Source: Balanoglossus misakiensis (Eukaryota > Animalia > Hemichordata). Taken from it: 64,000 nucleotides of DNA. This document shows positions 33,725 through 62,200 of the stretch, one piece after another. The number at the start of each line of letters is the position of its first letter. Position 1 is the first letter of the stretch. The position numbers and the translations under genes are program-made. The notes under the pieces are model-generated. The model ran no database searches. It was not told the DNA's origin and saw only the letters and a list, made by a program, of their open reading frames with translations. The DNA is taken from assembly GCA_040954595.2 (NCBI GenBank), contig CM082576.2, positions 2,702,760 to 2,766,759 on the forward strand, in the 5' to 3' direction.

Positions 33725-36700
33725 AGTAGCTGTGCTTTGATGCTCGCTGAAACGACAAATGTTACTTTTACTGGTACTTTTTCCCCTTTTATGTAGCTAC
33801 TAGGAATTCTGTGACAGAAGCATGGTCACCCTGGTTACCATGGTAATCATAACTGTGATAGAGAATCCTAAGCGTGCCATTGTGTGTTTGGTTCCACTCT
33901 ACTTGTCTGTGGGTTGGTCATTCATTTTGATTCCTGAAAATGAGAGAGAGGAGCAGATAAGACATAAGTCATCAGTCTGGAAATCTGACTGTAATTTATA
34001 CATGTACAGATGTGTAAATTTTAAAGAAACTTCAGGCACAAACATGTGACTAAAAGATCCCACCACTAGCAATTCTATGATCTGCACCAAAGAACAATTG
34101 AGCAAATATCATTTACTGAAAACTTACTAATGATGGCAATGATTCAAAACTGCAGGTACCCACTTCCTTTGAATATTCATTTTGTGATAAAAATCCGCTT
34201 CCATTACAGAAAACATTCCTCAGCAGGCTACCTGGTTGTGTGACTGACGGTTTCACCCATCAGTGAACATAATGCATTCACCCGAATCCAGGTACATCTT
34301 TTCATCAGAACCATTTACTATCAGACAATATCCATACAAGTGCAAGCCTCTTTTCATTGCATGCAGTGCTATTCAAATTGCCGGAACCCATTAATGCCTA
34401 CAAGCACAGCCTCTATGTCATTATTATGCCATGCCACGGATTCTCTGCACAGTATCAGTGACAATGACTTGGATATCAGCTATCAAAAAAAGTGGGACAC
34501 AGATTGATTAAATAAATTAGATAAACCTGATAGTTACATTTAGATGTGTTTTCTAATAGCTATTTGGTGAAAAACAATTCCCTTAAGAGTCTATGGTTCC
34601 CACTGTTTTGTATTGTCAATGAAGAAATCTGCCATATAAAACTGATTTCTTTTTTTTATTGAAAATATACATGTACCAGTAGGGGTGTTATTAATCAAAG
34701 TATAGTGATGAGGCGATATGATTATCTATTTAAGCACATGTGACATTAAACACCTTTGTATATTCTTTTTCAACTTTTGTAAGATTCACAATGCCTGAAA
34801 TATAAATATGGCACTGCAGTGGAACCAAAAAATTGCTCACTCCCCATAATTCATTACACTGACACATTTTCCATCTATGTAGTGACTGTGTATGATCATG
34901 CAGGCATACATTAATGATTTTGCCTTTTATTCTGCTATTATCGAACGAAACTCTGAAGATACCTATAATTTAACAAAACACTGATTTCAAAATAGCTGGA
35001 AGTTACAGTAGATGACTAGCAATGGGTGCACCCATAAACTGCCTGATGACCACGAAACACAAAGTGCCTTGGGCTTTGTATGCGTGGAAGTTTGATGTTT
35101 CACTCTCATTAGAAACATAATTTCAGACAATATAAAGGGAACATATTCAGTCCTAGTAATCTCTGACATTTTCCTTTACTACAGTACACCATCATTAGCT
35201 CTTCTGTCCTCAGGTAACAAGAAATCTTGACTAAAAAAGACGGATAAGATTTGCTTTGTATGGTCAATGTGAAGATCGACCGAAAAACTAATTCTGGGGG
35301 AATATCTGCTCTAGATCTCTAGGTCAAAACAAATTTTACGCATTACGCATCCTCTGGGTGATCTGTTTTAAATAACATTTTATTTCTCATCATATGGCAT
35401 TTCTATAAAAAAATGGTAAGAACGAAAACAAGCTTGAAAAGACCTGCGAGTTGTGCTCAAAGTAAATTATGTAGTATTATTTGGGTATATACCGGTATAA
35501 TGTGAAAGGATCGAACACAGATGGTGTACTTTTGGACATTAAAAAATTACTTTTGCTCTAGTTAATTTGTTTACTAGGCTGTAGTTAGTTTGTGTCAGTG
35601 AGATATCAGGCTTTTGGAGGCATAATCGATTCAGGAGCACTATATCAGAAATGTATGTGCTGTAGATGTGTTCACTTGAATTAAAACTTGACAATGCACT
35701 GTGAAACCTGTGTCCAAGGAAGTAATACAAGCACCCACATACTATCGGATGAACTTTATATAAACCCAGATAAACGAAATTAATAATAAAGCACGTTTAC
35801 CAATAATCCAAAATGTAATCAGATAGTATTAAAGTATTCTTTCAGGTTCAATAATTAATTTTTTTTCATTACGTACAGTAAAATGATAGGAATGATATCA
35901 ATGGCATAGTGTGGGTGACAAATACCATAATCCAGGCATCACGCTCTCAATCGGAACAAGAAGCAAAATGGCTGAAGATGTAGTGTTTTTGTGCAGAACA
36001 ATTACATTTAATGTGCTTTACAAGAGCACAACTACATATTAAACACATTAAGTCACCCTTCATAAATATGGATATAAACATAGATACATGCAATGCCTGA
36101 TTAAAAAGTGGAAAAGCATGGAAAAGTAGGACTGACAGAGTAAATGATCCATTCAGATCTGGTTCACTGGTCACTATGAATTCTCACTATGACAGTCCAA
36201 TATAAACATGTGTACGTGTAGCTCACTCTCTCTGAGGAGAAAGTTGGCAGTTTCAAGTTTAAAGTGCTAAAAGCAGAAGTTTGTTAAATATGCAAATTAG
36301 AAGTTAATTAAAATCCACCACACTAAATATTTCCTAAAATATGCAGATGATTATAAGTCTCAATACCTGTACAAAGTTCCATCCAATTTGGTAGTGTAGT
36401 TTTAAAAATATGCCATTAATTAGAAAAGTTCATTAAATATGCAAATTAGCAATTAATTGGTGTGACACCTTATACCACCATAGTCAAGTAGGCCTAAAAT
36501 TTGGTGTGGTAATTCTCTATATATGCAGATGCTGTCATGGTGCACTCCATAGACAAACCACTATCACAAAAATGTTGATCTTTGTTAATTTCATCAATAT
36601 GCAAGACACACCCACCAAATGCTAATCTAATGTTAGGGAGGGTACTATGTGGCCAAGGATGCAACATATAAAACAGAAACTTTCAGGAATAAATTGCTGT

Positions 36701-41812: not shown

Positions 41813-44800
41813 ATGTCCAACCAAAGCACCGTGATACACGTTGGAAGTCAGGAAAACATCGGGGACAGTGAGACTCTCTTGATACCGACCACCAAAGAGA
41901 AAAAGACTGGGGAGAATACGCTGACGGAAGTGGAAGCGACTGAAAGAACACGCGAGATCAGCGATGTCAACAAAAACGACTGCATCGCACCTGAGCAGCT
42001 GACCAAAGAGAAGTTAAATGACTTTGATAAAAATGAAACCCTTCAGAATGGGGGAAAACAGGATGATTGGACAAAACCTTTCAAAAGGAGATCATCCATT
42101 GAAAACTTTGGAAGATTCGGTCTGCTGACCCCGGCACTTATTCTTGTGCCTCAGATTGATGGGGTAGGTGGCTTACAAGTTGATGTCAGGCAGTTCTCGT
42201 ATGTAGGCGTCTTGATTGCATGCCGTCATTGTAGTGGCAAATTAAAAATGGTCAGGGTTTCACTTTCAATAGAATTTCCAATCAAGTAAAATCAATTTGC
42301 TGCTAAATTTAACCTGATAGTACTTAATAGAGTGTGTTAAATAACTGCGTCCAGTGCTTGGCTTTAATTCAACAACTTCAGCATATGCTGTGACGTGAAT
42401 CAGCCTCTTTGAAGAGTGCGTCGGCAAAGTTTAGTGCCCGGTGAAATGAATCCTAGGTACCATTTTTGGGTTCAGAACCACATACCATGCATCTACATTA
42501 TGCTTGTGAGTTGAAGAAACTGTCCAAAAGAGATGTGACAAAATGTAAAAGGTGGCTTAAATAAGCCACTGTGAAGATGCTGTTGTGCATGAATTGTGTA
42601 TACATGTATGTATGTATACACTGATTGGTGACTTTGTGTTCATCATTACCTACATCTATACATGTACGATGTATGTGTATGCATTGTGAGTTATTTCTGT
42701 ACTGTGACATCTGTTAATTCAGGTCAGTTTAATAATACATGTATGTGGGCTGATGACAACTAAAAATAATTTTTCACGATGTTCTCATATTGAATGAGGT
42801 GTAGATTTCGCTTGGCTCTTGTTGGTAGCTTTCTATAAAGAAGGTTAATATATTACATGTACGTGTGTTGCATAACTTCACTGAAGTGTTTTCATTTAAC
42901 GCTGTGTAACTGTTTTATTCCACATTAATTGTGTTACCAGGTGGTTCAGAAACTTAATACTTGGCATACCAATGGCGATTTCCATGGAATGTGTCGTGTT
43001 ATGTTTTGACTGGGTAGTGAATATGAGATTCCAAAATGTGACTGTGAGGTCAAAGTTCAAACCAACAATACGACCAATACCAGCCCCTATTTATAGCAGT
43101 GCAGTATCCCATCCCCCAGCATAATTCCATATGCTGAAAATAAGTCAAGGCCATTCCGCTGAAATTAATGCAATTTGGAATTAACATTGGCTCTAATTCA
43201 ATTGCTGTGTGAACAAAGGGTCTCTGATTATTGATTCCCATGTCCATCTCTCAGAAGCTGTCGTAGTTCAAGTTCAGAGCTTTATTCTTTCCTTGATTTG
43301 GACTTCTTCAAACATGACAAAACCTTAAGTTCTGTACTGCTATTGCAGTTAGATGGAGTTTAAAATTTGAAAGCTTTAGTCGGGAGTGAGTGAAAATTTA
43401 AGTGCCTTAAAAAACAGTTTCGGTGATCGGGTGATGATATCATTCGATGCATTGAGCCCCGAGGCACAGTTTTGTGAAAACAATTGTCAAAATGACAGTT
43501 ATAAAATTTATGAAGTTAACAATTGTGCATTACTGCAAAAATTTAAAGAATCATTTGACTATATTAGTGAATTGTTAACACCCAATCAGTAAATGAAAAA
43601 TAAACTCAGAAGCCACGTTTTGTACCTGCATTGTAATTAGCGTACATTGTGATAGCTTCGACTTAATTGCATGGGTCAACATGAAAATGATACTGTCAAG
43701 CATTTAATAGCGCAACAGAAAAAAGTATTGATCATTTCTCTGTTGATATTGCTGCACATGTTGCTTGATGTCTGTCTACAGTATGTTTGAATTGTTTCAA
43801 AGCCCTTGCATACTGGTATTTGGGAAATAAATGGCATCTTAAGCACTTCTGTGTGTATTTCCAGTTGCCTGTGGTACAAAATTTGAATAGACTGGAGTCA
43901 GGTTACTGTATTGGACGTGCTGTGACTATTTAAAAAAAGTATGACGTGAAGTAGTAAGAGATGACCTACCGTACCTCTGTCGTCAACGCTGGCTTGTTCT
44001 GTTTGGTCAGTGGGTTCGTCAAGTCCACTCTTGATAGTCAGGTTAAATTGATGGCCAAGCTGTCAATCATCATTAAGGTATTGAGCCAATTACAATACAC
44101 TAAATAACAGTTGAGCCGAGTATCGATTGAGATCAGGATGCCATCCCTGTGTGTCGGTCGTTCGCAGTGTTGATGACACTCCAATAGTTTGAAGCCGCAG
44201 AACATAAGTGATGAGTGCTGATGCCAAATGGTGCCCCCTGGTGGTGATGGATGGATTGATGTTCCATACATGGTAGTTTATGTGCGGAATGGTGTCCATT
44301 GCATTGCTCACTTTGTTACAGTGGTAGTCATAATAATTGTGTTAGCCATACGCCAGAGAGCAGGACGGCTGACTGCTATTAAAACTGTCAATATAAATGC
44401 ACTTATAGATCTTATGTATGACATGTGAAACGTTTATAAATACATCTCAGAAATTATTTTTATTGTATCTGTTTGTGAATTGTAATTATTTCTGGTAACT
44501 TTGTGGATTTCCAGTTATTGTTATTCGTAACTGCTGTGAGTTATGGAGGGCTAGACAGCTGTGGAAAATATTTGCAAGAAAGTTTAGACATTTCCCCATT
44601 TTCTTTTTCGCTGGCTGTTCTCATCTCTCACACAACACTGGGTGGTCTTGGGACACATTGATATCATTTGAATTTGTGCCAAGTTTTGAAGAAATGTGAA
44701 AGTTCATATTTTGACAGCTGAAGTATATGATGCCCAACATTTCAAGCTGATGCAGGATTTTGTATCATGGCATTCCAATGATGAGTACTGGCAATCCATA

Positions 44801-47800
44801 TGGATTACATGTGAAAATTACCAGTACCGGTACTAAGAGTTTCTTTGTTTTTCTAACTTCAGAATGATGCTTTGACGCAGAGATTCCCAGACCTTCAAGG
44901 TGAAAACAGGGAGCTGATCCTAGCTGCAGCTCACATCGATGATGCAATCAACGGTAGAGGTCGATACGGAAAAGCCAGGGCGATATTCAAGCCAAGAAAG
45001 GCTCAAACGTAAATTTCTCATTTTGTCTTGTCAGTTTTTAAAACAGGAATGAAAGTTTCTGAAATCAAGGTGTTGCAGATAAACTATGTTATTGAGAAGA
45101 GGAGCAAAATCATATTTTTAAAAAAAATTATTTGGAAATCTGTTAATCTTGGCTCTTACAGAACGGAGACAAACCAACATCGTATTTGTCTTTTATTATA
45201 TCTTTCAGATGTTTTGCAATTCTGGACAGCAGGTGGTTTAATAAGATAGTTTTAATTGCTATCATCATACACACTTGTCTTATATTCTTTGAACCTCCAC
45301 CTGTCAATGGGTAAGTGGGGTGTAATTTGTTGTGAGGAGCGGCTACCGTCTTCTGTCTTCAAAAAGCCATTAAAATAGTTTGCACTTGGATACCAGACGA
45401 GTTGTCAAAGAAGTCACACTTCTCTTGTGACTGAAATGAATTACTGAAAAAAACAAAACAATGTATCACTATCATTGAATCTAACTTAGGCTTCTGAGAG
45501 AAGTAGCGAATCTTATAAAATAGGGGAAAAAAGAAGCTTTCATAAAATGAACTGATATGTGCTTGGTAATGTCATAAACTAACATGACTATTATTTTTTT
45601 GTTTTCATCTTTTTTGTAGGACTTCCCCAGCAGTCTTTGCCCTTACAGCAGTTTGTTTACTTGTTTATTTACTGGATGTTTTGCTTTATATTACATTTTT
45701 AACGTGGCCAGTGTTTTGGTCCATAGCAGAGAACAGATGGATGAGGTGAGTTTGGCAGGATTTTTGTGTGTATAGTTCTGATATCCTATTGTCTGCTAGT
45801 ACAGAGTCAATACGAAATGAACTTTGACATGTTTCACTTTTTTTCCATTCCAGAGTGGAGTTTGTGTTTCTGTGTATGTTTACAGTGGATTTTATTTTTT
45901 TGATAATTCAAGAGAGTATACAAATGGTGAGTCAGAATTTCTTTTCAATGAATGAAATATTATAAGCTCTCTGGAATCTTTTCATGCGATGTTTTACTCT
46001 GCAAACGTAAAATCACTGTCTAGTGCATCTGTATGCATCTTGTTTTTCTCAACACACAATTACCCAAATACCTGGTGGGTACATGTCTGGCTGTACAAAA
46101 CAAACAAAAGAGTTTGTCATGTTACATGTACAGGCTTTAGAAACTTAGGCATGGTAGAGGTTAATGACCTGAGGCACTTGTGGCCAAGTTGCCATGACAG
46201 CCGTCGTGTTTATTTTCTTCAGGTACTTGAGAGTGCGGTAACGCGATTCTAAAAGTACGAACAGTTTTAAAGGTTCTTTTCTCACCGAAGTCTGTCCAGT
46301 CATATTAGGTGACCCCCTGACCCCTTGATAAGAAGGAGACAGGGAAACTCTCTGAGTGTGCTCGTCTGTGTGTTTCAAGATGTTGAGTTTTAGCTGTGAT
46401 GTTAATTTGTGGTGAGAAAGTTAGCAACAAGGTCCTCACATGGCGACGTTGAGTGAAATAAAAACAGGATTTCAGTTTGTCTGCAAACCACCAAACAAAA
46501 GTGAAATTGACACTTGCATTCAGAGGGTATAGAATGTACAGGTACCCTAAAAAGTGAGAGTAGATGTTTTGTCATATTGTTTGTGCCATTGATCTGCACA
46601 GCTATTGACCTACTGGGCAATGAGAATGGTTTGGAAATCTTTACACTAGAGTTTGGAAACTTCCATTAACTGACATTTATGCCCAGCGGCTTAAGTCTGA
46701 ATGTATTGTTGAGAGGTGTTGTGCTCCCTAGTGGGGAATTTGGATGATAAAGGAAGTAAAAGAGAGAAACTACATGTAAATGCAAACCGTGGTTGTTGAG
46801 TCTTTGCCATGCCAACGTCATTGTTTTATTAGTTTTGTCCTACACTGAGTTGATGTGTTTTTATGTAGCCTGTGATTTCAGTACTACATGTATATGTACC
46901 TGTTAATGGGTTGTGAAATGTGTAGACTGGTCATTGCAAGCAAAATATGAACAGTAGTTTGCAGGTTGTTCCAAATGAAAGATGTACTCAGTAGTTTTTG
47001 TTTTTCATCATCTAAAACTTGATTTTTGTATGTCACTTTTCCCATGAATTTGTTACAGTTGGTGATCATTTTACTTTTCAGAGACTAGCGCAACCTTTCA
47101 GATGTCTTCGAGCTGCTTTGCTACTGTGTAAATTAAATAATGTTGGTCACATTTATGACGTTGTTTTATCCATTGCTGTGAAAATGGCAACAGTGAGTAC
47201 AACATCCCTTTCATCATTGTAACATTTTAAAATACAACTTTTAGGTCCAGTTTGAGTACAGGTGACCATCCTCAGTAATCAATCTTGTTGACCCCTGACC
47301 TTATTTGTATAAAAAAGTGTGATTCAAGATATGAAAACCCCAAAATGGACAGTGTCAAATCCATAACTGTTGTTCTTCAACACGACGGATTGTATATTGT
47401 GTACATGTACATGTATGTAACAGTGCAGCTTATCCATGTCTATACTGCATATTATATTATTGTCTGTCTTTTTATCTTTTTGACAGATTTTCTTCATAAT
47501 CACCCTGTTCATTATTCTCTATGCTGCCATTGGTCTACACCTTTTTGTTATGGACTATCATTACATCGGCTGCAACAACACAGGGCTGGTGAACTGCACA
47601 GAAGATGCTGATAATATCTATACTGGGTAAGTTGTTCTCACTCAAACCTTTGCACCTAAAGCTTTCTGTGCCTAAATTTCTTGACAAAAATATTGTCATC
47701 TTGATGTTATTCTTTTGTTTTATACAAATATGTTGTGTTTTGTGGCAAACTTTGTGGCAAAAATGTTGATTCTTATTGTTTTATTGAAATTCTGTTTCAG

Positions 47801-50800
47801 TGCATTTGATCATGTTGGTATTGCTTCATTGAGGCTGTTTGTTCTGCTTACAACTGAAAATTACCCAGTGAGTACCACTACCCATTTTCATGTAGAATTT
47901 TTCAACAGAAGTCTGCCTTACATGCAATTAGATTCGACTGAGAGCGTGGTAAATCTTCACTCACATTTTACAGAAACTGCATGAAAAGACAGGTTCGGAA
48001 TTTGCAAAGCGTGTACTCTTCTCACCATCTTTGTATTTACTGAAACTCAAATATTAAGTAAGTTCTAATTACCGATATAACAGATGCTACTCAGCATTGT
48101 TCAATGGCTTGGATGCAAATATGTTTTAACTATGTTTTTTATAAAACTTAAATTTTCAATTTTTTTTTTTTACCTCATCCAGGCATTCATATTACCAGGC
48201 TATGCAAAGAGTGCATACAGCTTCTTCTATTTTGGAATATTTATTTACGTTGGTGTGTTTATCTTACTGGCAATTATGCTTGCTGTCATAGTTGATGGAT
48301 ATTGGTACGTATTTCCTCAGTTATGAAGTATATTGAAGTAAGGACCAGGATTAACAATTTCATCGTGCACATTTATGGTTGTCAATTGACACACTACATG
48401 TTGGTTTCTCAGAGTATCGTACATATAGTCACTATGACTTCCACCAAAGAAACTTATTACCATAAAAATCATCATCATCATCACCACCATGATCACCTGA
48501 ACTACATGTATCCTATCGCCAGGGTGTTTGCCAAGAAACATGTCAAACTGGAAAGGAGCAGGGAGAGAGCTGAACTGGCCAAAGCATGGAATCTACTGGA
48601 TCCACTAGGAGCTGGCATCCTGGAAAGGAGCGATCCCAAATTCTTGACTTTATTCCGGCTTCTAAGACCAAAGGTATACAAGCTTATGCTGAGTCTATCT
48701 GAATAAATTATAAATTCTCACCTGCCAAATTATGTGTACAAAGCAGGATTTGGCGAAATTCTTCAGTGTGAAATTGTTCAATGTTCAAAAACAATCTCTC
48801 GTTTTACTTCTCTGGCCAATCTCAAGTGACATTCATGGTTCATTTATCCCATATTTTTTTTGTTACAAAATTCAGAACACGGATGACATGAACCAGCAAC
48901 TGATTGATTACCTAGATGGAAATGATGATGGACACATTGACTCCTTTGAGTGGACAACAAGGCTGAATGAAACTCTGAGTTTTGAATTTGAAGAGGATGA
49001 AATGCACCTGCAGGTATGCTGTCTTTATTGGCAATTAACAGTTCCTAATTATACATGGTCACTAGAGGAAAATGTTCCTAAAAATGTGAATGTATTGATT
49101 TTGGACATTTAAATTAAAAATAGAAACACAGTACACCGAGTATCCAGCCTGTCCCAAGTCTCACTGTAACTATATATTAAAACAAAAACCATTTTCTTGT
49201 TTGACAGAGGACTTTTCCCAGATGTTTCCAGGTGATCAGAGATGGAGCTCACCGATTGATCAACTCTAGAGTGTTCTCCATAGCCATTCTCATCTTAATC
49301 ATTGTACATAGGTGGGTTAAAGGGCAGATAGCTGTATATGTAATAGCTTGATATTTGAAACATATGCCTAAAAATGCATCTGAAAGGTTTTAGGATTATT
49401 CCCAACCGCTGGGGTGGTTTAAAGGTGTATTGTAGCCTTCACAGTGAAAGCAATGTACAACCAGGTTGACATTTCGAGTTACTGGCTGTCTTACAGTTCC
49501 TGGTGGTCGATATGTATTTTGTCTTCAAAAAGATGTTTGCTTCATGCAGCATGGAGAAGGGGGAGATCAATTGAACGCATGGTGGTCGTTCACTGACGGC
49601 AGATCCTGAAGTGTCTCTCTTTGTGTTTCAGTGTCTTGTTTTGTGTGAGATGGTGGGGAATGAGTTACATGCAAGAACTTATCATTCAAGCAATCAGAAC
49701 CGTCATTGTGTCCATCTTTGTGGTAAGTTTATCATTATTCATGAAATGGATCATAAACTATCAAATGTGCATGTACATGGTCAGTGTCAAAGTTTTTGTT
49801 AGAGGTATCCTTTTCGAATGTTTTTTGTTAGTTTGAAGGATTTTTAACATCACCTCCATGAAAGTATGAAAATGAAACTTGTGTTATTTGTTTGCTGATT
49901 ATTACAGTTTGAGATTATTCTGAGAATGATGGGAGAGGGGCGTGGCATGTTACAAATCTTGGAGATACTGGACCTTGCGCTGGTCATCATAGCGTTTGTA
50001 GCCAATCTTGTTTGGTATGTGTTCATCGATAACACCATACACAGAGGAGCATGTGTTGTGACATCCTCGCTGGCTGTTGCTCTCCGAATGGGGTTTAATT
50101 CAGCTCAGGTGAGTCTATGTTTTCCATTGTTTTCCATTGTAATCATCCCTCAGGTGTATGAGTCAACATTTGTGATGTTGCATTGGAGATTTGGAGGAGT
50201 AACCAAGTACATGTAATAATATACAGAATCTTGTAAAATAGAAGGAAGTTGTGATTTGCTGTGTTTTCTTTTCCTTCTGTGATAAAAAAAGCACACAATT
50301 AATTCATATTTTGATATTTATTGTATGTTTATTGTAGACAAAGAGGCTGGTCAGTCTACTTATGAAGATTTTCCCTGTCATGTTCGACCTTACTGTGCTG
50401 GTGGTTATTATATTGTAAGTATATTTGAGATTTAAGATTTTGCCTGAGATTTGTTTGTGAATATTGTGATGAAGGAATGTGGAATTTCTAACATGTATCT
50501 TGGATTATCTGTGCCACAAAACTCAAATGCAGGCAGAGACATAGTTGTAGTCCTGTACTACCCATTACCTGTTTTCCCTTGTAGTTATTTCTTCTCCGTG
50601 GTCGGCTGGGAATTGTTCTACGGTTCAGCCCCTGATCCCACCTTTCAGACGGACTACTATCAGTATAACTGTGGACTTGGATTTCAGTCATTTCCGTAAG
50701 TGAGAAATCCGTTATCTTGTGAAGCAAAAGGTGGGGATATACATTGAAAAAAAGTTGCAAGATATGTACACTTTGCAAGATTTTGTAGAAGTGAGGAGAC

Positions 50801-53800
50801 TTACAATTCAACAAAATTTAGAGATTTGTTGATAGAACTGTGGGTTTGGGATGTACCTTGTTCCAAGTTTGTTTCAGTCCATATGTGCATGTCATGCGTC
50901 CATTATTGATAACCAAATCTTTTTTATTGTATATGATATTTTTTTATTCTATAATCAGATGTTCAGTGCTGGTGATATTCCAAGTCATGACGACCAGTAA
51001 CTGGCATGAAATCATGAATGCTGTAAGTTGTGGATTTCCATTAAATGAAAATGTACCGTAAAGAAAAGCTATTTTGTTTTGTAACTTCTGAATCATCGAT
51101 GTAAAAAATGGAATTATTCCAAACAGAAAAATTCCTATCATTAACTTAAAACAAGTTATAACACAGTGCTTTAATTCATTGTGCTTTCTGTTTCAACTTG
51201 CTAGGCCATGCTGTCGACCAGTGAGTGGGCGTGCCTTTATTTCATCACCTGCTTCTTTGTGATGGAGTTGATGGTTATGAAGTAAGTGTTGGAAATTCAG
51301 GGAGATTTGTGGTATTAGTATTAAAACATGAGAAATACTGAGAGTCCAAAACTGTTCCAATGGATAAAATGATTTGTTCATCTCACATGAAAGGTTTCTT
51401 GAAACTTTCTCTAAGATCTTGAAGCAATGTCAAAGCTGACATTTATGTGTTGTTACTATTGTAGTGGTGAGATTTTAATACAATCTGTTTCCTTCCCTCC
51501 AGTATATTTGTTGCCATAGCGATTGAAGCATTCAACAAATTAGGGAGTGAGAAAGAGATGGAACAGATGATCCAGGGAGATGATGTCAGCACAGAGGATA
51601 AGGTGAGAGGCAATCAGTGTCTGCAGACAATGTTGAAGTGTCACGATGCAGTTACTGTAACATCTTTACAGTTTCTACTCCGACTTTAAAAGACCTGGCT
51701 TGACATTTTGTGGAAAGTTGTGCATCATAATTTTACTACGATGACTTTTTTTTCAGGGCACGTTGGCGTCCACTGCCAAGAACTTCATCTCAGATATGTT
51801 TGAAAGCTCAAGGGTAAGTACGTCACGGAAGGTCACACATCGTTTTTTGACTCATCATTTATACCAAAATTCTTCTCCATCTTTGACTAATTCCTTTGTA
51901 TCATGGAAACTTGTAACTTTAATATCATCATGAACGTTTCAGTATGATTTAGTTATTTGTGAAGAGGTGTGTCTTTTACAATTAAAGAGGTTGACATCTA
52001 TTGATTGGTTTATTGAAATTTTGTTGAACAATTTAATGAGTATTTGGCTTTGATTTCCCTTTATCTCCTTCGCTGTAATTTTTGCAGAATGAGCCCGAGA
52101 GAAAACATGTTGCTGCAAGAAGAGGCAGTCACATTGTAAGTACATGTAGTCTTTGGAGGATCCAAAATCATTGAAAATAGCTGGATAATTTCACCATCAT
52201 GTTTAATGGAAAATCTCCCCCAGCTGATGTGGTATTCCCGAAATCTTCCAAATATAAAAACAACATTTTTTTCATCTTTTCAGAGTGCCATTAGCACGCT
52301 GCACATATCAGAGAAAGGAAGCAGTGTAAGCGTTCGTCCTGAGGAGGTTGGTGCAGTTTTGAACTCTACATATTGGAATGATGTTGTAATTGTCTGTATG
52401 GTGTGGTCAGTCAAAGGAAAACAAAGTACTTCTTACATTATTGAAAAAGCCATTTTTTATTTGAGACAAATGACTGATAAATTGATACCACATTCTTTAT
52501 TATTGAAATAATGAACAAATTAAGACAATTTCAACATTTCTTTCATAAGGGAAAGGACGACTTCTCTGACCTGCCAGCACAACTGAGACGAGAAAAAATG
52601 CTGAAACAGAAGATGGCACAGAGGAAGAAGAAACATGCCAAGTCAGCCATGACCAAGATTATTGTGATGACAGCATTCAAAGCGGACAGAGAAAATGAGA
52701 TTGACCTGAATGTTGGTGAAGAGGTCAATGTCATGGAAAAGGTTGGCAGACTCTTGTGAATTTTGACCCAAGATATTTCAAATCCAGTTGCATTGATTTG
52801 TGTTCGTTTGTCAAATCATGATCTCTGCAATCTTGCCTTAACATTGTCACCATAACTATTTGCTTGTTCCCCCCAGAGAAACGATTGGTTGTTGGGATCT
52901 GTGGGCGAGAAAACTGGATGGCTTCCAGCATCGCATGTCCGAGAGATGAAGAGGACTCACTCAGTGGAAGAGTCCGGCCATTCCGGCAGTGCCAGTCCTA
53001 AACCAGCATGGAACAGAAAAAGTATTGAAAAGTCAGATCAGAAGACGCAAGAGTCAAAGGTATGAGATGTAGGAATGTTTGTGCTCCTGTTGACATCATT
53101 TTTGGGGATCATTATCTGCCTGTTCCATTCACTCTTAAATAAACCTCATGACCTCTCATCACCTCTGGCCCATTTCACCAGGGTGACAAGAAGGGAGGCG
53201 ATCACACATCCTTTCACAATGCCGCCTTGGCCGCAGCTGCGACAACCCATCTACAGGTTCAGCAGGCGTCGTCACAGCAACCAAAACTGAAAATCAAGAA
53301 GAGGGAAACGGATTGGAGGAAGAGTATTCTTGGTGACATCACTGTCATGAATCCAGAAGAGGTAAAAGTCATGGCTGTTTTTCTGGGTTCTCTGTTTGTT
53401 TGATCACATTTGTTTGTCCCTTACCCCTGGTGACCCTTGACATCACATGGAGAATTGTCCCATAACATAATGCAATTACTGTTGTAGGTCCGAGAACTGA
53501 ATAAGATCATGAAATCTGAATTGAAATACCGCGGTAGGATGGTAGCTGGAGAGGTGAGTGCATAGTCTTCATAATCCACAAGGATTTGAATTTGGCATTT
53601 GATTATTTGCCTTTGCCTTGAATTTTCAAAAGTGACTTGATGTTTGCAAAATCTCATTTTATGTTAAATCACTAGTGTGGAACTAATTATTGTTTTATGA
53701 TTATTCTTCTCCATTTTTCAGTCTTCTGGATCCTTGCCAGGAACAATGAAGTTTGCATCAACTCTGTGAGTATATAAAGTTCGGAAAATTTTTCACCAAA

Positions 53801-55045
53801 AGTGACAATTCTGTGTCATGTGTACATTCTGGCCACACCAATCAGTGCCCGTTGCTCATTCTGAAAGTCTGGCAGGGGTACTGTGGAGGTCTCATCCTTT
53901 GACAGATAAAATTTATTTTTGGAGACAAACTTTTTAACCTGCATTCTCCTATTTTCACCAGAGATGGCAGTATACAGGAAGAAGACGGAGAAGCTGAAGC
54001 AGCTAGGTTGAACTTGACAGCACCTGGTCAAGTACGTTTCAAAGCTTTGGTGTTGTTAGTTTATGTCCTAAAGACCATTCACTGATCAATTGTGTATTGG
54101 TCACAAATTAAACACAGATTACTGTATCTTGACAGTGGGGTCACTATTTTCAGTTGTGATTTCTTGGGGGCCAACTCAGACTACATAAAGACAATAGAAC
54201 ACTCATAAAATCTCTGATTTTGCTTTGTGTAGATCAGAAGTGAAAAAGTGCCTTCCATCTCACTCGACAAAGTTGATGAAGGACAAGGAGAAAGTGGCAA
54301 AGGTAAGATCAACCCTTGTGCAGATGACTTTCTTTCCGAATGATATTGCGGGTTCCTGCTTGGTCACTCCACAAGTGGATGTGACCGTGGTTCCTGACAG
54401 AAAGTCATCTGCGACCGCTCACCGTTTGTGACCATTTCCATCATGTCTGAGGTGCACCTCGACCATGAGAATTACACGGTGAACTTTGATTGGCCAAGTG
54501 TGCTGTACACTAGGTACATGAGAGCATTTCATAAGACTGATGATCATTACTCTCTCCGAAGTAATACTGCAGTTGTACTTTTCATTTTCAGAAAACTCGG
54601 GGAGGAAAGAAAGTGGGGAGATGCCATCGTGGATGATGAAATTTGCCGAGACTCACAACATCAGCGTGACGGAAGATGTCAAAATGGAAAAACCGAGTGA
54701 AGAAAATGAGGAGTATGTTGTCTTTACTTTTTGTCATTGTGTGGGAATCAAAATACTAGTGGATTAATGTGAAGATTCTTTTTGATGTGAAAGAAGTATT
54801 TTTTGAATTCATGAATATTTCAGAGCATGTGTATGTCGGTGAAAGAATTGTGCTGTCAGATCTGTTTAGTTTGAGGCAATGATAGCGCCATCACTGGTCA
54901 AACTCCAAATTTCTGCTGTTTTCCCTGGCGGTTTAATTTTTCAAACATGGGACATCAGTTCCTAGATTTAATCATTTTTTGACTTCTATTACCTCACAGA
55001 CAATCGCTACCAGGAAAAACCAATATCCAGACAACAGAGCTGTGA
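41813..55045 (+). CDS. Atypical two-pore channel (TPC)-like cation channel with linker EF-hands and a C-terminal SH3 domain (~1156 aa, 31 coding exons)
   Basis: Exons, all GT-AG and phase-consistent, summing to 3471 nt: 41813-42163, 44863-45008, 45209-45310, 45620-45745, 45854-45926, 47082-47192, 47487-47626, 47801-47867, 48183-48304, 48523-48673, 48876-49013, 49208-49311, 49632-49722, 49908-50108, 50338-50414, 50585-50695, 50959-51022, 51205-51281, 51503-51602, 51757-51813, 52088-52135, 52284-52325 (or 52346), 52550-52741, 52877-53059, 53182-53361, 53488-53553, 53722-53765, 53962-54031, 54233-54302, 54592-54712, 55000-55045. TPC hallmarks: N-terminal LAAAHIDDAINGR, IS1 LIFFEPP, IS4 PFRCLR, pore I LFVLLTTENYP-AFILPGY, IS6 LAIMLAVIVDGY, IIS5 FSVVGWELF, pore II FQVMTTSNWHEIM, IIS6 MNIFVAIAIEAF. 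An in-frame TGA at 41756 supports the ATG at 41813. Junctions in the tail are less certain than those in the channel core. Confidence 0.88.
48523..49013 (+). other. EF-hand pair in the interdomain linker of the TPC-like channel
   Basis: Degenerate loop AWNLL-DPLGAGILERSD and canonical loop YL-DGNDDGHIDSFE-W (48915-48950; D1, N3, D5, G6, I8, D9, E12). Confidence 0.85.
52655..52948 (+). other. SH3 domain split over two exons of the TPC-like channel
   Basis: The spliced translation KIIVMTAFKADRENEIDLNVGEEVNVMEK|RNDWLLGSVGEKTGWLPASHVREM aligns with the SH3 pattern (ALYDY-A---DELSF--GD-I-V----WW-G----G-FP-NYV). Confidence 0.85.
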
Positions 55046-56222
55046 AGAAACATGACATCCAGTGTGTCGCTGGTAAAGGAGGTGTCAGAGGGTCACTCTT
55101 CCCGAGCAATATGACATCCACCTAGTGTTCATAGAAACACACACATCTCTCAGGTCTCTCTTGGAAGTATTGGTAAAACGTCCCAGAATGCACCTCTCAC
55201 ATGGTTATTCAGGAATGCCCAGTAGCATATCACAATCATCAGTCGATAATCAATGTCACCTCCGCCAGTCGGTTCGTGGTGGATTCAGACAATGAAACAT
55301 TCCTGTTTATCTTCTGAGTGTAGGAAATTCTGGACCAAGCATGTGGAGATGATTCCTGTCGAGTGCTCCAAGTTAAGTAATTGATAAATTTCAATGATGT
55401 TCATCTTGTGAATAATCATTTAGACACATTCCATGAATTCAAATGCAAATAATTTTTCTACTTAACATTTTGAAAGAATACATCATATATCAATCCTTAA
55501 GAATGTAAACATTTTAACGTTTTTAATGAATTTATTACAGTAACTCATGTGCAATTGTTTTTTTTTTATTTTTAAAATGTAAGAGCAAATGCTAAAACGT
55601 ATCATTTTATTTTGAAAACAATTTAATTTTTTAATTGAGAATATGAAATAAAGGAAGAAATAAAATAAATGTTAACATTTTCTAAATATGCATTTTCAAT
55701 AAAATAATTTACCGCACTCTAGAAATTATTACACAAGCAGGTTTATGATGAATCTGGATTGATACATGCAGTTTCCACCCTGCTGTGATTGCCAAGGGGG
55801 CAACTATGCTGAACAAACCACACACACTTCCAAGAACTGGATTGAACTGGTCGAGCAAACCTTTGTTTTATTGTCTAAAGTGACAATGGGATGGACAGAG
55901 TATAAACTTTCAAAATTATTACAATTTCAGTACAGTTTTATCAAAAATTTTCAACAATATAAAAAAGTGATGATCACATGATCCTCGAGATCTGAGTGAA
56001 ATTATTTCATCAATGCAGTGGAAGATTTGCTTGAAGCTGGCAGTGACTGCGTATGAAAAAGGCAATAGTTGACATTGTGTAACCATTTTTTTCATATATA
56101 TTTCAATTCCAACATCAATTGGCTATTATAAAAAAAAAAGACTGAAATATGAAAGAAGTCTGTTTCCAAGTCCCTGGGGAACAAACATTTTTCGTGTTGT
56201 CGGTTGTTGCGAACGACGGCCA

Positions 56223-59200
56223 TCACCTTCTCTTGGTTCTTCGTCCTGAACGCGTTGTCGGTGTGCGACTCCTGCTGTGGTTGCTGGTGTCCGAGACATC
56301 AGTACAACTCTCGCACGCCCATTTCCCTGCAAGAGGTGAAAAAGGTCAATAATGTTGAATCAGGGTACAACAGAGATCGAGGTCACAATGTACAGGTTTG
56401 ACAAATACTGAACAAGTACCGGTAGTTGGTGACATAAAACTTGAGGTCACTGTACACATGCACATACATGATCATGCAGTGTAGAAAAATGACCTTTCCG
56501 GGGTGAGGAATGTATCCAAGTTGTGACCTGCACTGTGATCAGCAAACGATAGTTGTCCTGTGTTTCTATGCCACTTACTTGTCTGAAGTATAAAAATACG
56601 CGTGAAGGAAAAGAAAAGAAAAGTATGGGTACCTGTTGGAATGCTCTTAAGTCCCACACAGAAAGTATGGTATCCTCTGTCACACTCGTCACAAAACATC
56701 ATCTTGTCCTGCGAGTTATAAAAAGAAGGGTCAGAGTTCAAAAGGCAAAGGTGAAATATCAAATGCAAAAAGCTGAAGGTGTTTTTGAGAAACACTGGAA
56801 CTAGGTATGTCTGCACTGAAGTAAATAAGCTGTTTCGCACAAAAGGTGCATTGGAGGTTTGATGACTGTGTGACAAGGCTTGCTGTTTTTTATTTGGAAA
56901 GTTCATCACTTTGAAATTTGCCAGCAGTCTCTACATGGGACTCACCTCGTGTGTAGGATCACCGCAGAGTGTACAGGTCTTGCATTCCATGCACTGCCAC
57001 GGATACGTCTTGATCACCTTCACCAGGTCGTCACTCATTTCCAGACATGTTGGATGACCTGAAATCCAGTTTGTGAGTTTTAAAGTCAGATGATTTTAAG
57101 TCGAAATGTGGAGGCATTGTGGTCTAACGGCAAGGGTATCAAATTTGCTATTGCAGGATTGTAGGTTCGACACCTAGACATGGTTGTGGATTCATTATCA
57201 GAGAATGGGGAGTTTTTGAGACCTGGACATATGGCCATGATGGGCATATCATATGAGGTTTTGCTCTTGAACAGCCTTCAAATGGTTTTAAAATGCATGA
57301 AGAGAATTTCAGTGGTTGTGTATGCAAGTACGTGAAGAATCCATGCCGCGTTGTAGACACTACAAAGGATTTGATCAACAACTCACCGCTGTTGTCGCAC
57401 TGCGAGCAGTGAACCAAGATTTCCTGGAAACCCTTCTTGTTCGACTGCTCGCCCTTCAGGCAGATCCCACATATTGCATCCGGAATATCCTTAGCCTGCT
57501 CATGAAGAAAAAAGATGGACATTTAGTGAAGGAGTCCCCAAAAATACCTGTAAGAGGGATGGCTGTTGTGATGTCTACACAGTACTGTAACACACAACTC
57601 AGATTACATCAGGCACCCAGAACTTTCCTAGTGAATGGAACACTTTTCAGCTCTGTTGCATAATACCACTGGTCGTGTTTTCTCGTACACTGTGCTGGGC
57701 GAATGACTTCACATGCACACATCACTGCACTGATGGTAAACAACATGTAATGTGTGATTCATGTTTCATGCGATGTGCACAATGCTACCAGTAAAGTTTT
57801 TTTCCTTTTGTTTAATGATACATTACCTATACACCACAGGTAATACTCAGCACCATACAACATGTTTCATGAAAAACAAGACTCGATGGCAAGGTTTGCG
57901 ACAGAGACGGGGCATGCTGATGAAGGGAACAACAGCAGTGAGGCTGATGTCAGAGGTGAAAGGTCAAAGGTGACCACACGCGCACAGCCACAGGAACAAC
58001 ATTTGCAGACATGACACGACAGCTTACACACAACATAGGGACTTTAAGTACACAACACAAAGCACAAGTCAGCAGCGCTGGCGGAAGGTTAAACAGGGAA
58101 TTTTTTTTTTCTTTGAAAGAAAAATGAAGAAGGTAACAAAGTCCAAGGTGTAAAAGGGAAAGATTTGGACACCTCTTTGTTGACTGTGTCCTCCTCCTTC
58201 GCCTTCTCATCCTCAGTATCCTGCTCACCCTGCTCAGCAGGCTGTGACTGCGTTGCGTGTTACAACGGCAACAATTCAAAGAAAAAAAAGACAGAAGAAA
58301 GAGAAGAGAATCAATAAATATTTATACATTAATATTTAAAAGCTGGGGGGGGGGGGTAAAATCACTCTAGGCTTGAAAATCTCTCAAGCAGGTGAACAGA
58401 TTGTTGTTGCCCGCTTCCAAATTGTTGGACAAAATGCAAATTTTGGAAATTTTCTCATGTGTTTGGGGTTGCCCTGTCAAAGAGGTTGCCTGCCATTTTG
58501 TTGGCTGCCAGCCAAGTCTTTGGTTTTATTCAAGAGAGCTGGGGGAGCTTTCCACTGCTGGCTCTCACCTCATTGGCTAACAGTTCTGACTTCGACTGGA
58601 AAGAAATCTAAGATCAGAGAATTTGTCAAGCCATGTGATACTGGAAGAAAATGAAACAGTTTCCTGCAGTATGAGTCTTTTAGAGCTGTAATGTCAGAAT
58701 GTTTTTTTAGGACAATAAGATTTGAGTCCAGTTGGTATAGTTTTCAGTTGTGTCATCAGAGCGACTTTAAAAAAAGGAAACCAAGTCCTTTTCCCCCAAC
58801 ATGGAAGATCAGCTAAATCTAACAACTCTGACTAAACAGCTTTAAAGTTTCAGATTTGTTAACTCACAATAGGTGAGGTATTAAGTCTCAGAAACCTGAT
58901 GTCAGTATAAAGTTCAATAATACTATTGACTGTTAATTTGAGATAATTTTAGTTATTTCTATTGTATGAGCAGACTTAAGTATAATTGAATACAGTTTAA
59001 GAAAGTATAAACAAGTAGAAAGAAACACCATTCTTCTGGGGTTTGGTGTACATCTGTTTCACCTTATATCCCTTCTTGCTCTGTTTGTTTGCTTTATCTG
59101 ACTCGTTTTCGGCATCAGATTCTTTGGAGCCACTCTCACTGCCACTGCTGCTGTCAGATCCAGATCCATCACTTGATTCACTGTCCTGATGATGAATGTA

Positions 59201-62200
59201 AAAATTGAGCGAGACAGAGTGAGAATGAAATGTTGATTTTAACATGTTCTACCTTTTACACGAACACAACAGCAGATTGGCTGTAACAAAATGGCCACTA
59301 TATAGAGGCGGCCACTAACACAGGTTTGACTGTAATACACAAAAGCACATGTACTTGACCTCTGATGTCAATTTCAGTACCATATTTGGAATTGGAAAGT
59401 GTTCCTCATTACCTCTGCACTGCTATCTACTGACGAGTCCTCTGACTCAACCAAAGCTCCTGGAGGCAACTCATTGGCTGAAACAGGCGGACCATACACA
59501 GCTGTGTTCAACGGAAAGTATTTCATTTCATCTGACGAGTACCTGGTCAAGAAGAGATAAATAAACTGGTTTACGATAAAGCAAACAAGTAAAAATGTGC
59601 TATAAATCAAAGGGAAGTTAAGAGAGATGAAAATATTTGAAATTGTGCTGTGAAACTATATCTTCGCCATAGAATCCAACTTGGCTAAAATGTTAGGAAA
59701 TGGGAATTCTTACACTACTTACTTTCGGTAATATTCCTGGAACTGACCGGGAATCAACATCACAGGGTATGCTCCGACTTTGGTCTCTTCTTTTGGCAGT
59801 TTTAACATTTTGCCCTGAGGTACGTGCACAATCTGGGACAAACACAAACAACAGTATTTGGGATTCTAGTATTGTGAGTAAGTGATGAATCACCAGTTGT
59901 AAACATTGTAAACAGAGGGACCTAAAGCTTGCTGGGGGAGGGTCCCACAGCCTGATACGATGAAAAAGTGAACTCACCGAAGTCTGCAAATCGAAGTATG
60001 CCTGTCTTTCTTCTCGTCTATCTCTGTTGAACAGCATATTGTACTCTGATGCCTGCTTCACCGCCTTTTTGATATACTCTTTGATTTTACTGGCATCAAC
60101 AGCAGGCTGCAATGAAAGTCATAAACTTATACAGATATGTCTCTGTGAGTATTCTGGGAGATTTTCTTGTTCAAATTTAGTAATGAAGAGATATATCAAA
60201 TCGTATCACAGCATGCTACATCACTGCTCACCACTTCATACTCTTTGTGTTTCTCTGTTATACTGAGTCTTTCTCTCTCGTGCAGCACGGCCGCATAGTC
60301 CTTGTATTTCTCTGGGTAGTCCTTGGCCATCAAGTCCAACACTTCATCCGTCTTCAAAGCCGTCAAACCTGAAACGCACAAAAGAGTCACCAGACAATTC
60401 ATTTCACGACACTAACTTTATTCAGAATTTTCCATTTCAATGTTGATAGCAAGGAAATTATTACTGTTATTACCAGGTAACCTTACCTATCATGGTTGAT
60501 TTGTCAAATGGGTTCACACATATTCTCCAATTTGGAGGTTTGCTGACTACATTGTCTTTTTCACCCAAATTCCCAGTTCTGATCTAATCTGATCTGCAGT
60601 GGTGAATTGAATTACATGTAGTCCATAATACAGAAGCACTCAGACAAAATTACACAGACCTGCTTAAATTGAAACCTTAATCTTACGACCTTGATGAAAT
60701 TATTCCCTTGAACTTCATTCTTACCTAGATTTACTTGCATTTCAGTCACTGCCCCCTTTTCACGAAGATAGTTCCTTTCCTTCATGTCCAATTCTCTCCT
60801 CTCCAGATCTGTTGAAAAGCAAAGACATAATTTTTTACGATAGCACCAGTCCAAGCTGAATCAAGACAGAGAGACGATTTTTGCACTCTATAATTTCCTG
60901 CTTTGCCTTGACTGTCTTTGTTTAATCATGTGTTTCAGAATCATTATTTCTTTGGGGAAATGGCTACAGACAGATTGATTGCTAAGGTTGTGTGATAGGT
61001 TTGTGACAACATATATGTGTAAGTGTGAATTTTCCGGCCAAATAAGTTGCTGGGTCATCATTCATGTTGACATGTTGATGATTTATAAACACCATTCACC
61101 AACCTGGGTATTTTCTCTTGAAAGACTTGACTCCCAAAAATTCACTGACTTGCTCTTGCAGCATGTACATTTCGCTGTCTTTACAATTCGGCGGCCAATG
61201 GTATTCAGAGAGATTCTCTGCCGGAAAGAATGTGTCACTAAAAAAAGGAAGATGTATGTAAAGTTAAATGTGTCATTGCGATGTGGCAAATGTTTACAAA
61301 TAATCAAGGAGGCCTAAACATTACTTACAATGTAGGCATTTAATGCCAACCGAATGCCTATACCAATCACTCTGTAGGAATGCATTTTTGAACATGTTGC
61401 ATAAAATTCCACATTCAAGACTGCGAATATGGTATCAGTCCTTTTAGTGTGTCTGTAATGATCTCAAATTACTTACCCGGCGGGCACCTCATCGCCTAAA
61501 TCGCTACTTTTATTGCTTTCACGGGATCCTGTTCTGCGTCGCTTAGCTGGCATGCGCGGTTCATCGCCCAAATCAATGCAATCAACATCTTTCTGTAGTT
61601 AAAGAAAATAATCCTAATGAACAATACAGGTACAAATTATGTGTACATGGTGAAACAATCCCAAAACATTTTTTTTACCATATGTGTGTGGTACATCATA
61701 TGTGTTATCTTACTGTATACAGTTTATGAGAGGCCTCTACAAGGTATGACCACACTCCACTAAAATTCAGACAATTCAGACATGTTTCAAAGCCAGAACT
61801 CAATAGACGTATATGAAAAATCAAGCATGTTTTAACAATGCTGCACTAACAAGGTCAAAGTGATCTGTCTTTCCATAGATTTCTGACCAAATTAGGTATG
61901 AAATTTGCTTTATTTTTTTGTCAAAATTACACCCGTTTCTATGGTGACAAAAACATTTCAATGATAGTCTAGAAAGGTGCTGATGCAATTTACACTACAA
62001 CTACGTCAAAATCACCATGGTAACAAATCATCAGATGAATAGTGAGGAAACCTTTTTGAATGATACATGTTCTATTCTTTCCCACAGGAAAGAACAGAAT
62101 ACTAGTAATTGAGAAAGAAAAAAAATATGCTATTCAATAAATAGATGGGTCAAATACACACAAAGTGTGTGAGAATATTGACCACATACGGGCTTGGCAA

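Follow-up and report, generated by a model that had tools for sequence, protein, structure and literature searches.

A channel gene with an unusual domain layout lies in a stretch of 64,000 nucleotides from the hemichordate Balanoglossus misakiensis (assembly GCA_040954595.2, contig CM082576.2, positions 2,702,760 to 2,766,759 of the forward strand), which is referred to here as the window and whose own numbering is used throughout. The gene runs on the + strand from an ATG at position 41813 to a TGA at position 55045, and a splice-site scan with translation gives 31 coding exons and a protein of 1163 amino acids. The protein features two six-transmembrane (6TM) repeats, a pair of EF-hand loops between them, and a C-terminal tail of about 400 amino acids that contains an SH3 domain. 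It is not an orthologue of the two-pore channels (TPCs) TPC1, TPC2 or TPC3, since it is separated from TPC1 by phylogenetic trees and from all three by alignment score. The original prediction of a new channel class is overstated, because the modelled fold is that of a TPC and the family is old, widespread and present in databases under other names; it is apparently an undescribed subfamily of a known kind of channel with a new domain layout. Taken as a whole, we lean, with slightly more belief than doubt, towards a fourth-subfamily two-repeat channel of TPC fold that would be permeable to Ca2+, opened by Ca2+ and under little voltage control.

The 31-exon layout of 6TM, EF-hand pair, 6TM and SH3 tail, which had been proposed from the letters alone, is borne out by relatives. 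The introns are GT-AG throughout and the reading frame is uninterrupted. With five relatives as tblastn queries, all 31 exons are matched with their order kept, and the seven matches that fall beyond the gene model are all weak (E 0.02 or worse). The protein is 80% identical to P0001 from Ptychodera flava over 937 residues, in an alignment that reaches the final residue, and 71% identical to the Glandiceps model. The gene is genuine, its splicing being read from homology to these relatives. A Pfam scan calls two Ion_trans domains and an SH3 domain above the cut-off in P0001 (SH3 E 4.7e-7) and in five other relatives. The claim that channel and SH3 belong to a single transcript holds in relatives, where complete transcriptome open reading frames (ORFs) with both repeats and an SH3 match were found in Oscarella pearsei and in four choanoflagellates (Hartaetosiga, Salpingoeca infusionum, Mylnosiga and Codosiga). 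Three contigs (4996, 5120 and 3176 nt) code for 1327, 1026 and 1026 amino acids, respectively, with channel and SH3, and they are spliced, being too short for a comparable set of introns.

An AlphaFold2 model was obtained for the amphioxus protein with 65 sequences. The mean predicted local distance difference test (pLDDT) score is 73, with most of the channel above 85, the SH3 domain, which forms a beta-barrel, at 93-96, and a conserved motif after the SH3 at 68-90 between disordered stretches. Helices of the cytosolic N-terminus are also present in the predicted structure. The top Foldseek match of the model is plant TPC1 (E 7e-17, 19% identity), and VIA-align gives Z scores of 30.4-33.1 for 17 TPC entries and of at most 23.1 for four-repeat channels. 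As modelled, the fold of the family is that of a two-pore channel and not that of half of a four-repeat channel. The nearest ESM Atlas clusters are a protist channel cluster and plant TPC1, and an HHalign comparison of the family with coral TPC1 is confined to filter I through IIS6. Superposition on mouse TPC1 (Z 31.3, root-mean-square deviation 4.4, 654 aligned) was judged from the end points of the alignment, which reaches model residue 1077 and chain residue 795. Because it extends to residue 1077, the model suggests that the post-SH3 motif, which superposes on the C-terminal region of mouse TPC1, corresponds to the TPC C-terminal domain, with the SH3 inserted ahead of it. This motif is conserved among animals and, by eye, is also found in choanoflagellates, where the tail motifs are visible.

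The SH3-bearing proteins are 1100-1900 amino acids long, compared with about 750-820 for animal TPC1, TPC2 and TPC3, and no other TPC is known to us to have an SH3 of its own. In an alignment of 34 animal rows, which includes the window protein, the Trp and Pro of the SH3 binding surface are mostly retained and two Tyr positions are altered, which we take to be a departure from the usual proline-binding surface. No PxxP motif occurs in the window's own protein. An endolysosomal dileucine pattern is present in the N-terminal part of 14 of the 34 rows, in places that do not align, and is uninformative.

The separation from the known animal TPCs is seen first in alignment scores. Aligned with solved structures, the amphioxus member reaches 89 bits with Arabidopsis TPC1, 70 with zebrafish TPC3, 55 with mouse TPC1 and 29 with human TPC2. 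TPC1 and the SH3 channel coexist in one coral species, Oculina, in which the true TPC1 (P0204) scores 634 bits on mouse TPC1, whereas the SH3 channel scores 50 bits on mouse TPC1, 70 on zebrafish TPC3 and 31 on human TPC2.

For the trees, 68 proteins were screened, of which two were left out for a broken repeat and five as four-repeat channels, and a further 20 of 72 rows (12 four-repeat halves and 8 near relatives) were removed, so that the two repeats joined gave 469 columns and 52 rows, which were analysed with LG+F+G4 and with a mixture model. A clade of 17 animal rows has support of 96.7/91 with LG+F+G4 and 89 with the mixture model. The clade that joins these rows to six choanoflagellate-type rows, P0050 and the second Owenia paralogue has 96.9/87 and 88, respectively. 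A clade of 33 rows that contains the animals, two choanoflagellate clades, Sycon and a haptophyte pair excludes coral TPC1 with support of 99.1/100 and 100. Constraining the 17 animal rows to group with TPC1 is rejected by approximately unbiased (AU) tests (p-AU 0.00014 with a fast constrained search, and 0.0025). The two-repeat rows are separated from the four-repeat halves with support of 100/100, and the terminal branches inside the SH3 family are short. The assignment to a divergent clade outside TPC1, by tree, and outside TPC2 and TPC3, by score, stands, and in the trees its nearest non-animal relatives are choanoflagellate two-repeat channels. A closer relationship of the family to voltage-gated calcium (Cav) channels than that of the TPCs was considered and is unsupported; the trees place the SH3 family no nearer to four-repeat channels than TPC1, and their base is unresolved.

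Two placements in the 33-row clade stand apart. P0071 from the sponge Sycon ciliatum is a two-repeat channel without SH3 that lies outside the SH3 group and possibly represents a second animal lineage of such channels. A haptophyte-containing pair (P0200/P0076 and P0104) sits on a long branch inside this otherwise animal-choanoflagellate clade, which may reflect old retention, transfer or artefact.

The family is widely distributed. A first search with one exon as query gave 25 matches among 56 candidates, and a profile built from 12 of those matches found 46 proteins among 7997 scored. These are 41 members of the animal family, assigned by name or close similarity, two more distant proteins (P0050 and P0051) and three four-repeat channels. 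By name, members are assigned to sponges (Corticium, Oscarella), to cnidarians (Nematostella, corals, Hydractinia, Rhopilema) and to Lingula, Owenia, Lineus, echinoderms, hemichordates, amphioxus and tunicates. The sea-urchin gene is LOC115929441 and the Ciona gene LOC100179610. The shared layout of 6TM, EF-hand pair, 6TM and SH3 tail is found in sponges, cnidarians, a brachiopod, an annelid, nemerteans, echinoderms, amphioxus, tunicates and choanoflagellates. Of the 41 animal rows, 34 have an SH3 call; the other seven are four short models that end ahead of the tail, one with a weak SH3, one that aligns without a Pfam call, and one without an SH3. Vertebrate, arthropod, nematode and mollusc names were not seen among the family members, within the limits set by unnamed rows and 50% clustering. 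Database entries name the members as sodium channel, P/Q-type calcium channel, TPCN1 or 'two pore calcium channel protein 1-like', and misleading names such as the first three probably explain why the family has been neglected.

A third search, with the profile against 1.84 billion representatives, reveals among its best 150 matches a further tier of two-repeat channels. The 30 proteins looked up from that tier include ten from choanoflagellates and one that clusters with the haptophyte Prymnesium, along with members from Sycon, Ephydatia, Tubulanus and Sanderia and the second paralogues of Lingula and Owenia; about a third carry no species. One representative, P0120, is a two-repeat channel that has EF hands and is fused to a cyclic-nucleotide-binding domain. 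An SH3 is present in four of the six rows of the choanoflagellate clade that is sister to the animals, the other two rows ending inside repeat II, and in none of the five rows of the other choanoflagellate clade. This pattern makes it likely that the SH3 was gained before animals and choanoflagellates split.

The non-canonical filters that had been claimed are confirmed in the 34-row alignment, in which the repeat-II columns have 33 rows and those of the repeat-I S4 have 32. In filter I, Glu369 and Asn370 are found in every row (34/34), and residues 369-370 and 372, together with the filter-II Trp, are invariant from sponges to tunicates. In filter II, position 717 is Ser in 27 rows and Asn in 6, and position 718 is Asn in 30, the other 3 having Asp. 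Columns 369-370 and 717-718 are the ones that differ between wild-type plant TPC1 and the Na+-selective Arabidopsis mutant 5tua, and the family has Glu-Asn in I and mostly Ser-Asn in II instead of the Ala-Asn in I and Asn-Asn in II of a Na+-selective filter. Calcium channels feature an acidic ring at the filter site. By inference from solved TPCs the channel is likely a homodimer of two-repeat subunits, which would put two glutamates at the site of this ring. Passage of Ca2+ and other cations is predicted because of these two filter-I glutamates per dimer and a filter II that lacks the Na+-selective residues. P0055 (Lingula) and P0073 (Owenia) are second, faster-evolving paralogues in which the filter-I Glu is replaced by Ser, the Lingula paralogue retaining the SH3, and the two are natural controls for selectivity. 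The choanoflagellate member P0057 (Barroeca) has glutamate in both filters.

Of the EF-hand pair that had been proposed, the second loop is canonical in the window protein while the first is degenerate. Both loops align with the EF hands of plant TPC1. The first loop has Asp at position 1 in all 34 rows, and it is probably empty because position 3 is Leu in 28 of them. The second loop has Asp at position 1 in 32/34, Asp or Asn at position 3 in 26/34, Asp at position 5 in 30/34, and Glu or Asp at position 12 in 27/34. The EF hands of plant TPC1 bind the Ca2+ that co-activates the channel, and voltage sensing in TPCs is confined to repeat II, according to the available passages of PMC12839299. 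By analogy with plant TPC1, cytosolic Ca2+ on the second EF hand would open the pore through the linker helix after IS6. The repeat-I S4 features Arg273 and Arg276 in 32/32, Arg267 in 21/32, and Lys or Arg at 283 in 32/32. In contrast, the repeat-II S4 has Arg634 (33/33) as its sole invariant arginine, and 21/33 rows have another basic residue 14 positions upstream. Since repeat II is the voltage-gated unit of TPCs and its S4 here has one invariant Arg, the stripped helix is predicted to make the channel independent of voltage. The SH3, likely an insertion at the C-terminal domain, would tether the channel to a partner.

Several observations weigh against this interpretation. The architecture of Ion_trans, EF-hand, Ion_trans and SH3 expected in Pfam is recovered for the Ion_trans pair and the SH3, but the EF-hand pair falls under the cut-off in the scanned animal members. 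The second EF loop begins with Ser in two tunicate rows and has Gln at position 12 in 6/34, so Ca2+ binding is not universal in the family. An acidic residue is found at filter-II site 717 in none of the 33 animal rows, the second Lingula paralogue has lost the filter-I Glu, and this Glu, which unnamed protist channels from beyond the 33-row clade have as well, is therefore no marker of that clade alone. Basic residues after IS6 (Lys417, Arg424 and Arg428) are invariant in 34/34, and together with those in the repeat-I S4 they leave room for gating by lipid. The sole canonical TPC in the tree is coral TPC1, which has a long branch and was the one sequence returned by a search aimed at canonical TPC2, TPC3 and plant TPCs; TPC2, TPC3 and plant TPC1 were compared by score only. 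The animal clade and the SH3 clade are moderately supported. Finally, four short database models stop ahead of the tail and the full-length row P0049 has no SH3.

The main rival is that members of the same subfamily are gated like TPC2, another channel with no functioning repeat-II sensor, by phosphoinositide or by partners that respond to nicotinic acid adenine dinucleotide phosphate (NAADP), with EF hands that are structural or modulatory; we consider this rather unlikely. TPC2 is opened by phosphatidylinositol 3,5-bisphosphate (PI(3,5)P2) alone, with repeat II locked on, in the available account of PMC12839299. Such gating would fit the basic positions that do not vary after IS6 or in the repeat-I S4, the basic stretch conserved near the N-terminus, and a second EF loop that is eroded in the tunicate rows and a few others. 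However, the S4-S5 linker of the animal family lacks, by eye, the arginine cluster of coral TPC1, a cluster with a role in lipid binding, and most rows from sponges to amphioxus retain the acidic residues of the second EF loop, a pattern that coral TPC1 has lost. An improbable alternative is a non-conducting or constitutively open subunit that scaffolds through its SH3 and tail motifs or serves as a heterodimer partner. The lost voltage sensor, the long conserved tail, and an SH3 that presumably deviates at its two tyrosine positions from the usual proline-binding surface fit this possibility, whereas invariance at filter positions 369-370 and 372 and at the filter-II Trp is what a functional pore would show. 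Very improbable is a fast-evolving paralogue of TPC1, TPC2 or TPC3 that gained its SH3 within animals, as entries labelled 'TPCN1' or 'two pore calcium channel protein 1-like' and a tree without TPC2 and TPC3 might allow, because the scores of the family are an order of magnitude under that of a true orthologue, its end branches are short, the SH3 and the tail motifs are already found in choanoflagellate relatives, and the AU tests reject grouping with TPC1. That the gene model fuses a channel gene with an adjacent gene for an SH3 protein is hardly credible: splicing of the window gene rests on homology, the Glandiceps annotation has two models and two of the coral models end early, but the C-terminal Glandiceps model contains the repeat-II pore and the SH3 together, channel and SH3 occur jointly in the complete ORFs of Oscarella and the four choanoflagellates and also in the 3.2-5.1 kb contigs (1026-1327 amino acids), and the introns between channel and SH3 exons are 148-274 nt.

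The preferred reading of a Ca2+-opened, two-repeat TPC-fold channel can be set beside four known systems. The TPC-related (TPCR) clade of unicellular eukaryotes was reportedly described by Rahman et al. in 2014. Like the family described here, TPCRs have two 6TM repeats, fall outside TPC1-3 and include choanoflagellate members (PMC4278181, PMC6259924, PMC8490419, PMC12839299, each as far as available), and in the available part of PMC6259924 repeat I or repeat II of the S. rosetta TPC homologues contains Glu or Asp at the filter site. Neither Salpingoeca rosetta nor Thecamonas, the sources of named TPCR sequences, came up by name among the hits of the present searches. A Cav-like acidic filter residue, which secondary passages give as the TPCR criterion, is present in repeat I (Glu, 34/34) and repeat II is non-acidic (33/33 animal rows). 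The available passages of PMC12839299 (2026) count three TPC paralogues in animals and state that TPCRs are absent from them, unlike the present family, and the available accounts of TPCRs mention neither an SH3 nor an EF hand. On this comparison by description, the balance tips narrowly towards the family being the animal branch of the protist TPCR group.

Plant TPC1, the Arabidopsis slow vacuolar (SV) channel (PDB 5e1j, 5dqq, 7fhn), is the best two-repeat match by score (87-89 bits) and the best by Foldseek. It shares with the family the EF-hand pair between the repeats and Ca2+ as activator, which for the family is predicted only. It differs in having an arginine array in the repeat-II S4, voltage gating, Ser in filter I and no SH3, and its identity to the family is 16-20%. 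Animal TPC1, TPC2 and TPC3 share the modelled fold (Z 30-33) and differ in their filters and in the scores of 29-70 bits against the 634 of a true orthologue. Cav3 (T-type) and other four-repeat channels share the Glu at the filter-I site and give the top phmmer scores (99-113 bits); however, that score sums several repeats, their structural Z is at most 23, and the family has two repeats only.

The coordinates of the gene and its features are collected in Table 1. The first intron (42164-44862) is 2.7 kb long, compared with 108-1155 nt for the other introns, and has no matches of relatives inside it. A candidate micro-exon at 46223-46237 (15 nt, in frame, with good splice sites) was dropped, as no relative matches it. 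On the - strand, a large exon at 32651-33796 encodes a fuseless-family membrane protein (PF15993, E 2.5e-78) in divergent orientation to the channel gene, and a PHD-finger gene at about 56300-60900, which we take to be PHF10-like, lies tail to tail with it.

Table 1. Exons and features of the channel gene, in window positions
Feature	Position	Strand	Remark
Exons 1-6	41813-42163, 44863-45008, 45209-45310, 45620-45745, 45854-45926, 47082-47192	+	
Exons 7-12	47487-47626, 47801-47867, 48183-48304, 48523-48673, 48876-49013, 49208-49311	+	
Exons 13-18	49632-49722, 49908-50108, 50338-50414, 50585-50695, 50959-51022, 51205-51281	+	
Exons 19-24	51503-51602, 51757-51813, 52088-52135, 52284-52346, 52550-52741, 52877-53059	+	
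Exons 25-31	53182-53361, 53488-53553, 53722-53765, 53962-54031, 54233-54302, 54592-54712, 55000-55045	+	
Cytosolic N-terminus	41813-45008	+	variable acidic part, then about 75 residues, the pre-S1 helix among them, that are conserved in the animal family
Repeat I, S1-S6 (about residues 168-417)	45209-48304	+	final few residues in the following exon
Repeat-I S4	47082-47132	+	residue conservation in animal rows given in the text
Filter I (residues 367-370)	47850-47861	+	Glu369 where plant TPC1 has Ser and coral TPC1 has Ala
First EF-hand loop (residues 439-450)	48599-48634	+	degenerate; residue conservation in animal rows given in the text
Second EF-hand loop (residues 477-488)	48915-48950	+	canonical in the window gene; predicted Ca2+ site
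Repeat II, S1-S6 (about residues 524-764)	49208-51602	+	
Repeat-II S4	50040-50099	+	no every-third-residue arginine array; single invariant Arg634
Filter II (residues 715-718)	50990-51001	+	Thr-Thr-Ser-Asn type
Lys/Arg-rich helix directly before SH3	52586-52657	+	
SH3 domain (residues 877-927)	52658-52945	+	split by intron 52742-52876
Conserved post-SH3 motif (about residues 1009-1034)	53311-53514	+	spans intron 53362-53487
Exon with second short conserved tail motif (about residues 1117-1134)	54592-54712	+	
Three polyadenylation-signal hexamers	55647-55703	+	about 600 nt past the stop

The view that no characterised TPC carries an SH3 domain agrees with the full-text literature, in a search that covered few subscription journals and turned up no account of an animal TPC with an SH3 or of a fourth one. 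The available part of PMC7312350 gives three TPCs for sea urchin and six homologues for a sponge, and these six may include the SH3 family. The same literature search yielded nothing on the family for a role in sperm or cilia, the sole hint being a taxon range that overlaps that of CatSper in the available part of PMC2572835. A more speculative and doubtful extension is that the family is an animal TPCR of pre-animal origin, Ca2+-permeable, Ca2+-opened and voltage-free, which would be anchored by its SH3 in the flagellated cells or gametes of marine invertebrates and would have been lost in vertebrates and moulting animals.

With sea urchin, Ciona, amphioxus and Nematostella all sharing a fourth, conserved subfamily, the count of three TPCs is revised in model organisms of calcium signalling. 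A natural two-repeat channel with a calcium-channel-type Glu bears on the proposal that such filters predate the duplication from which Cav and Nav channels arose. Sea urchin is the classic system for NAADP-evoked calcium release and, if the animal-TPCR reading is true, it would hold an uncounted fourth TPC. If the prediction for gating is true, the family would be an animal TPC that is opened by Ca2+ as in plants, yet released from voltage.

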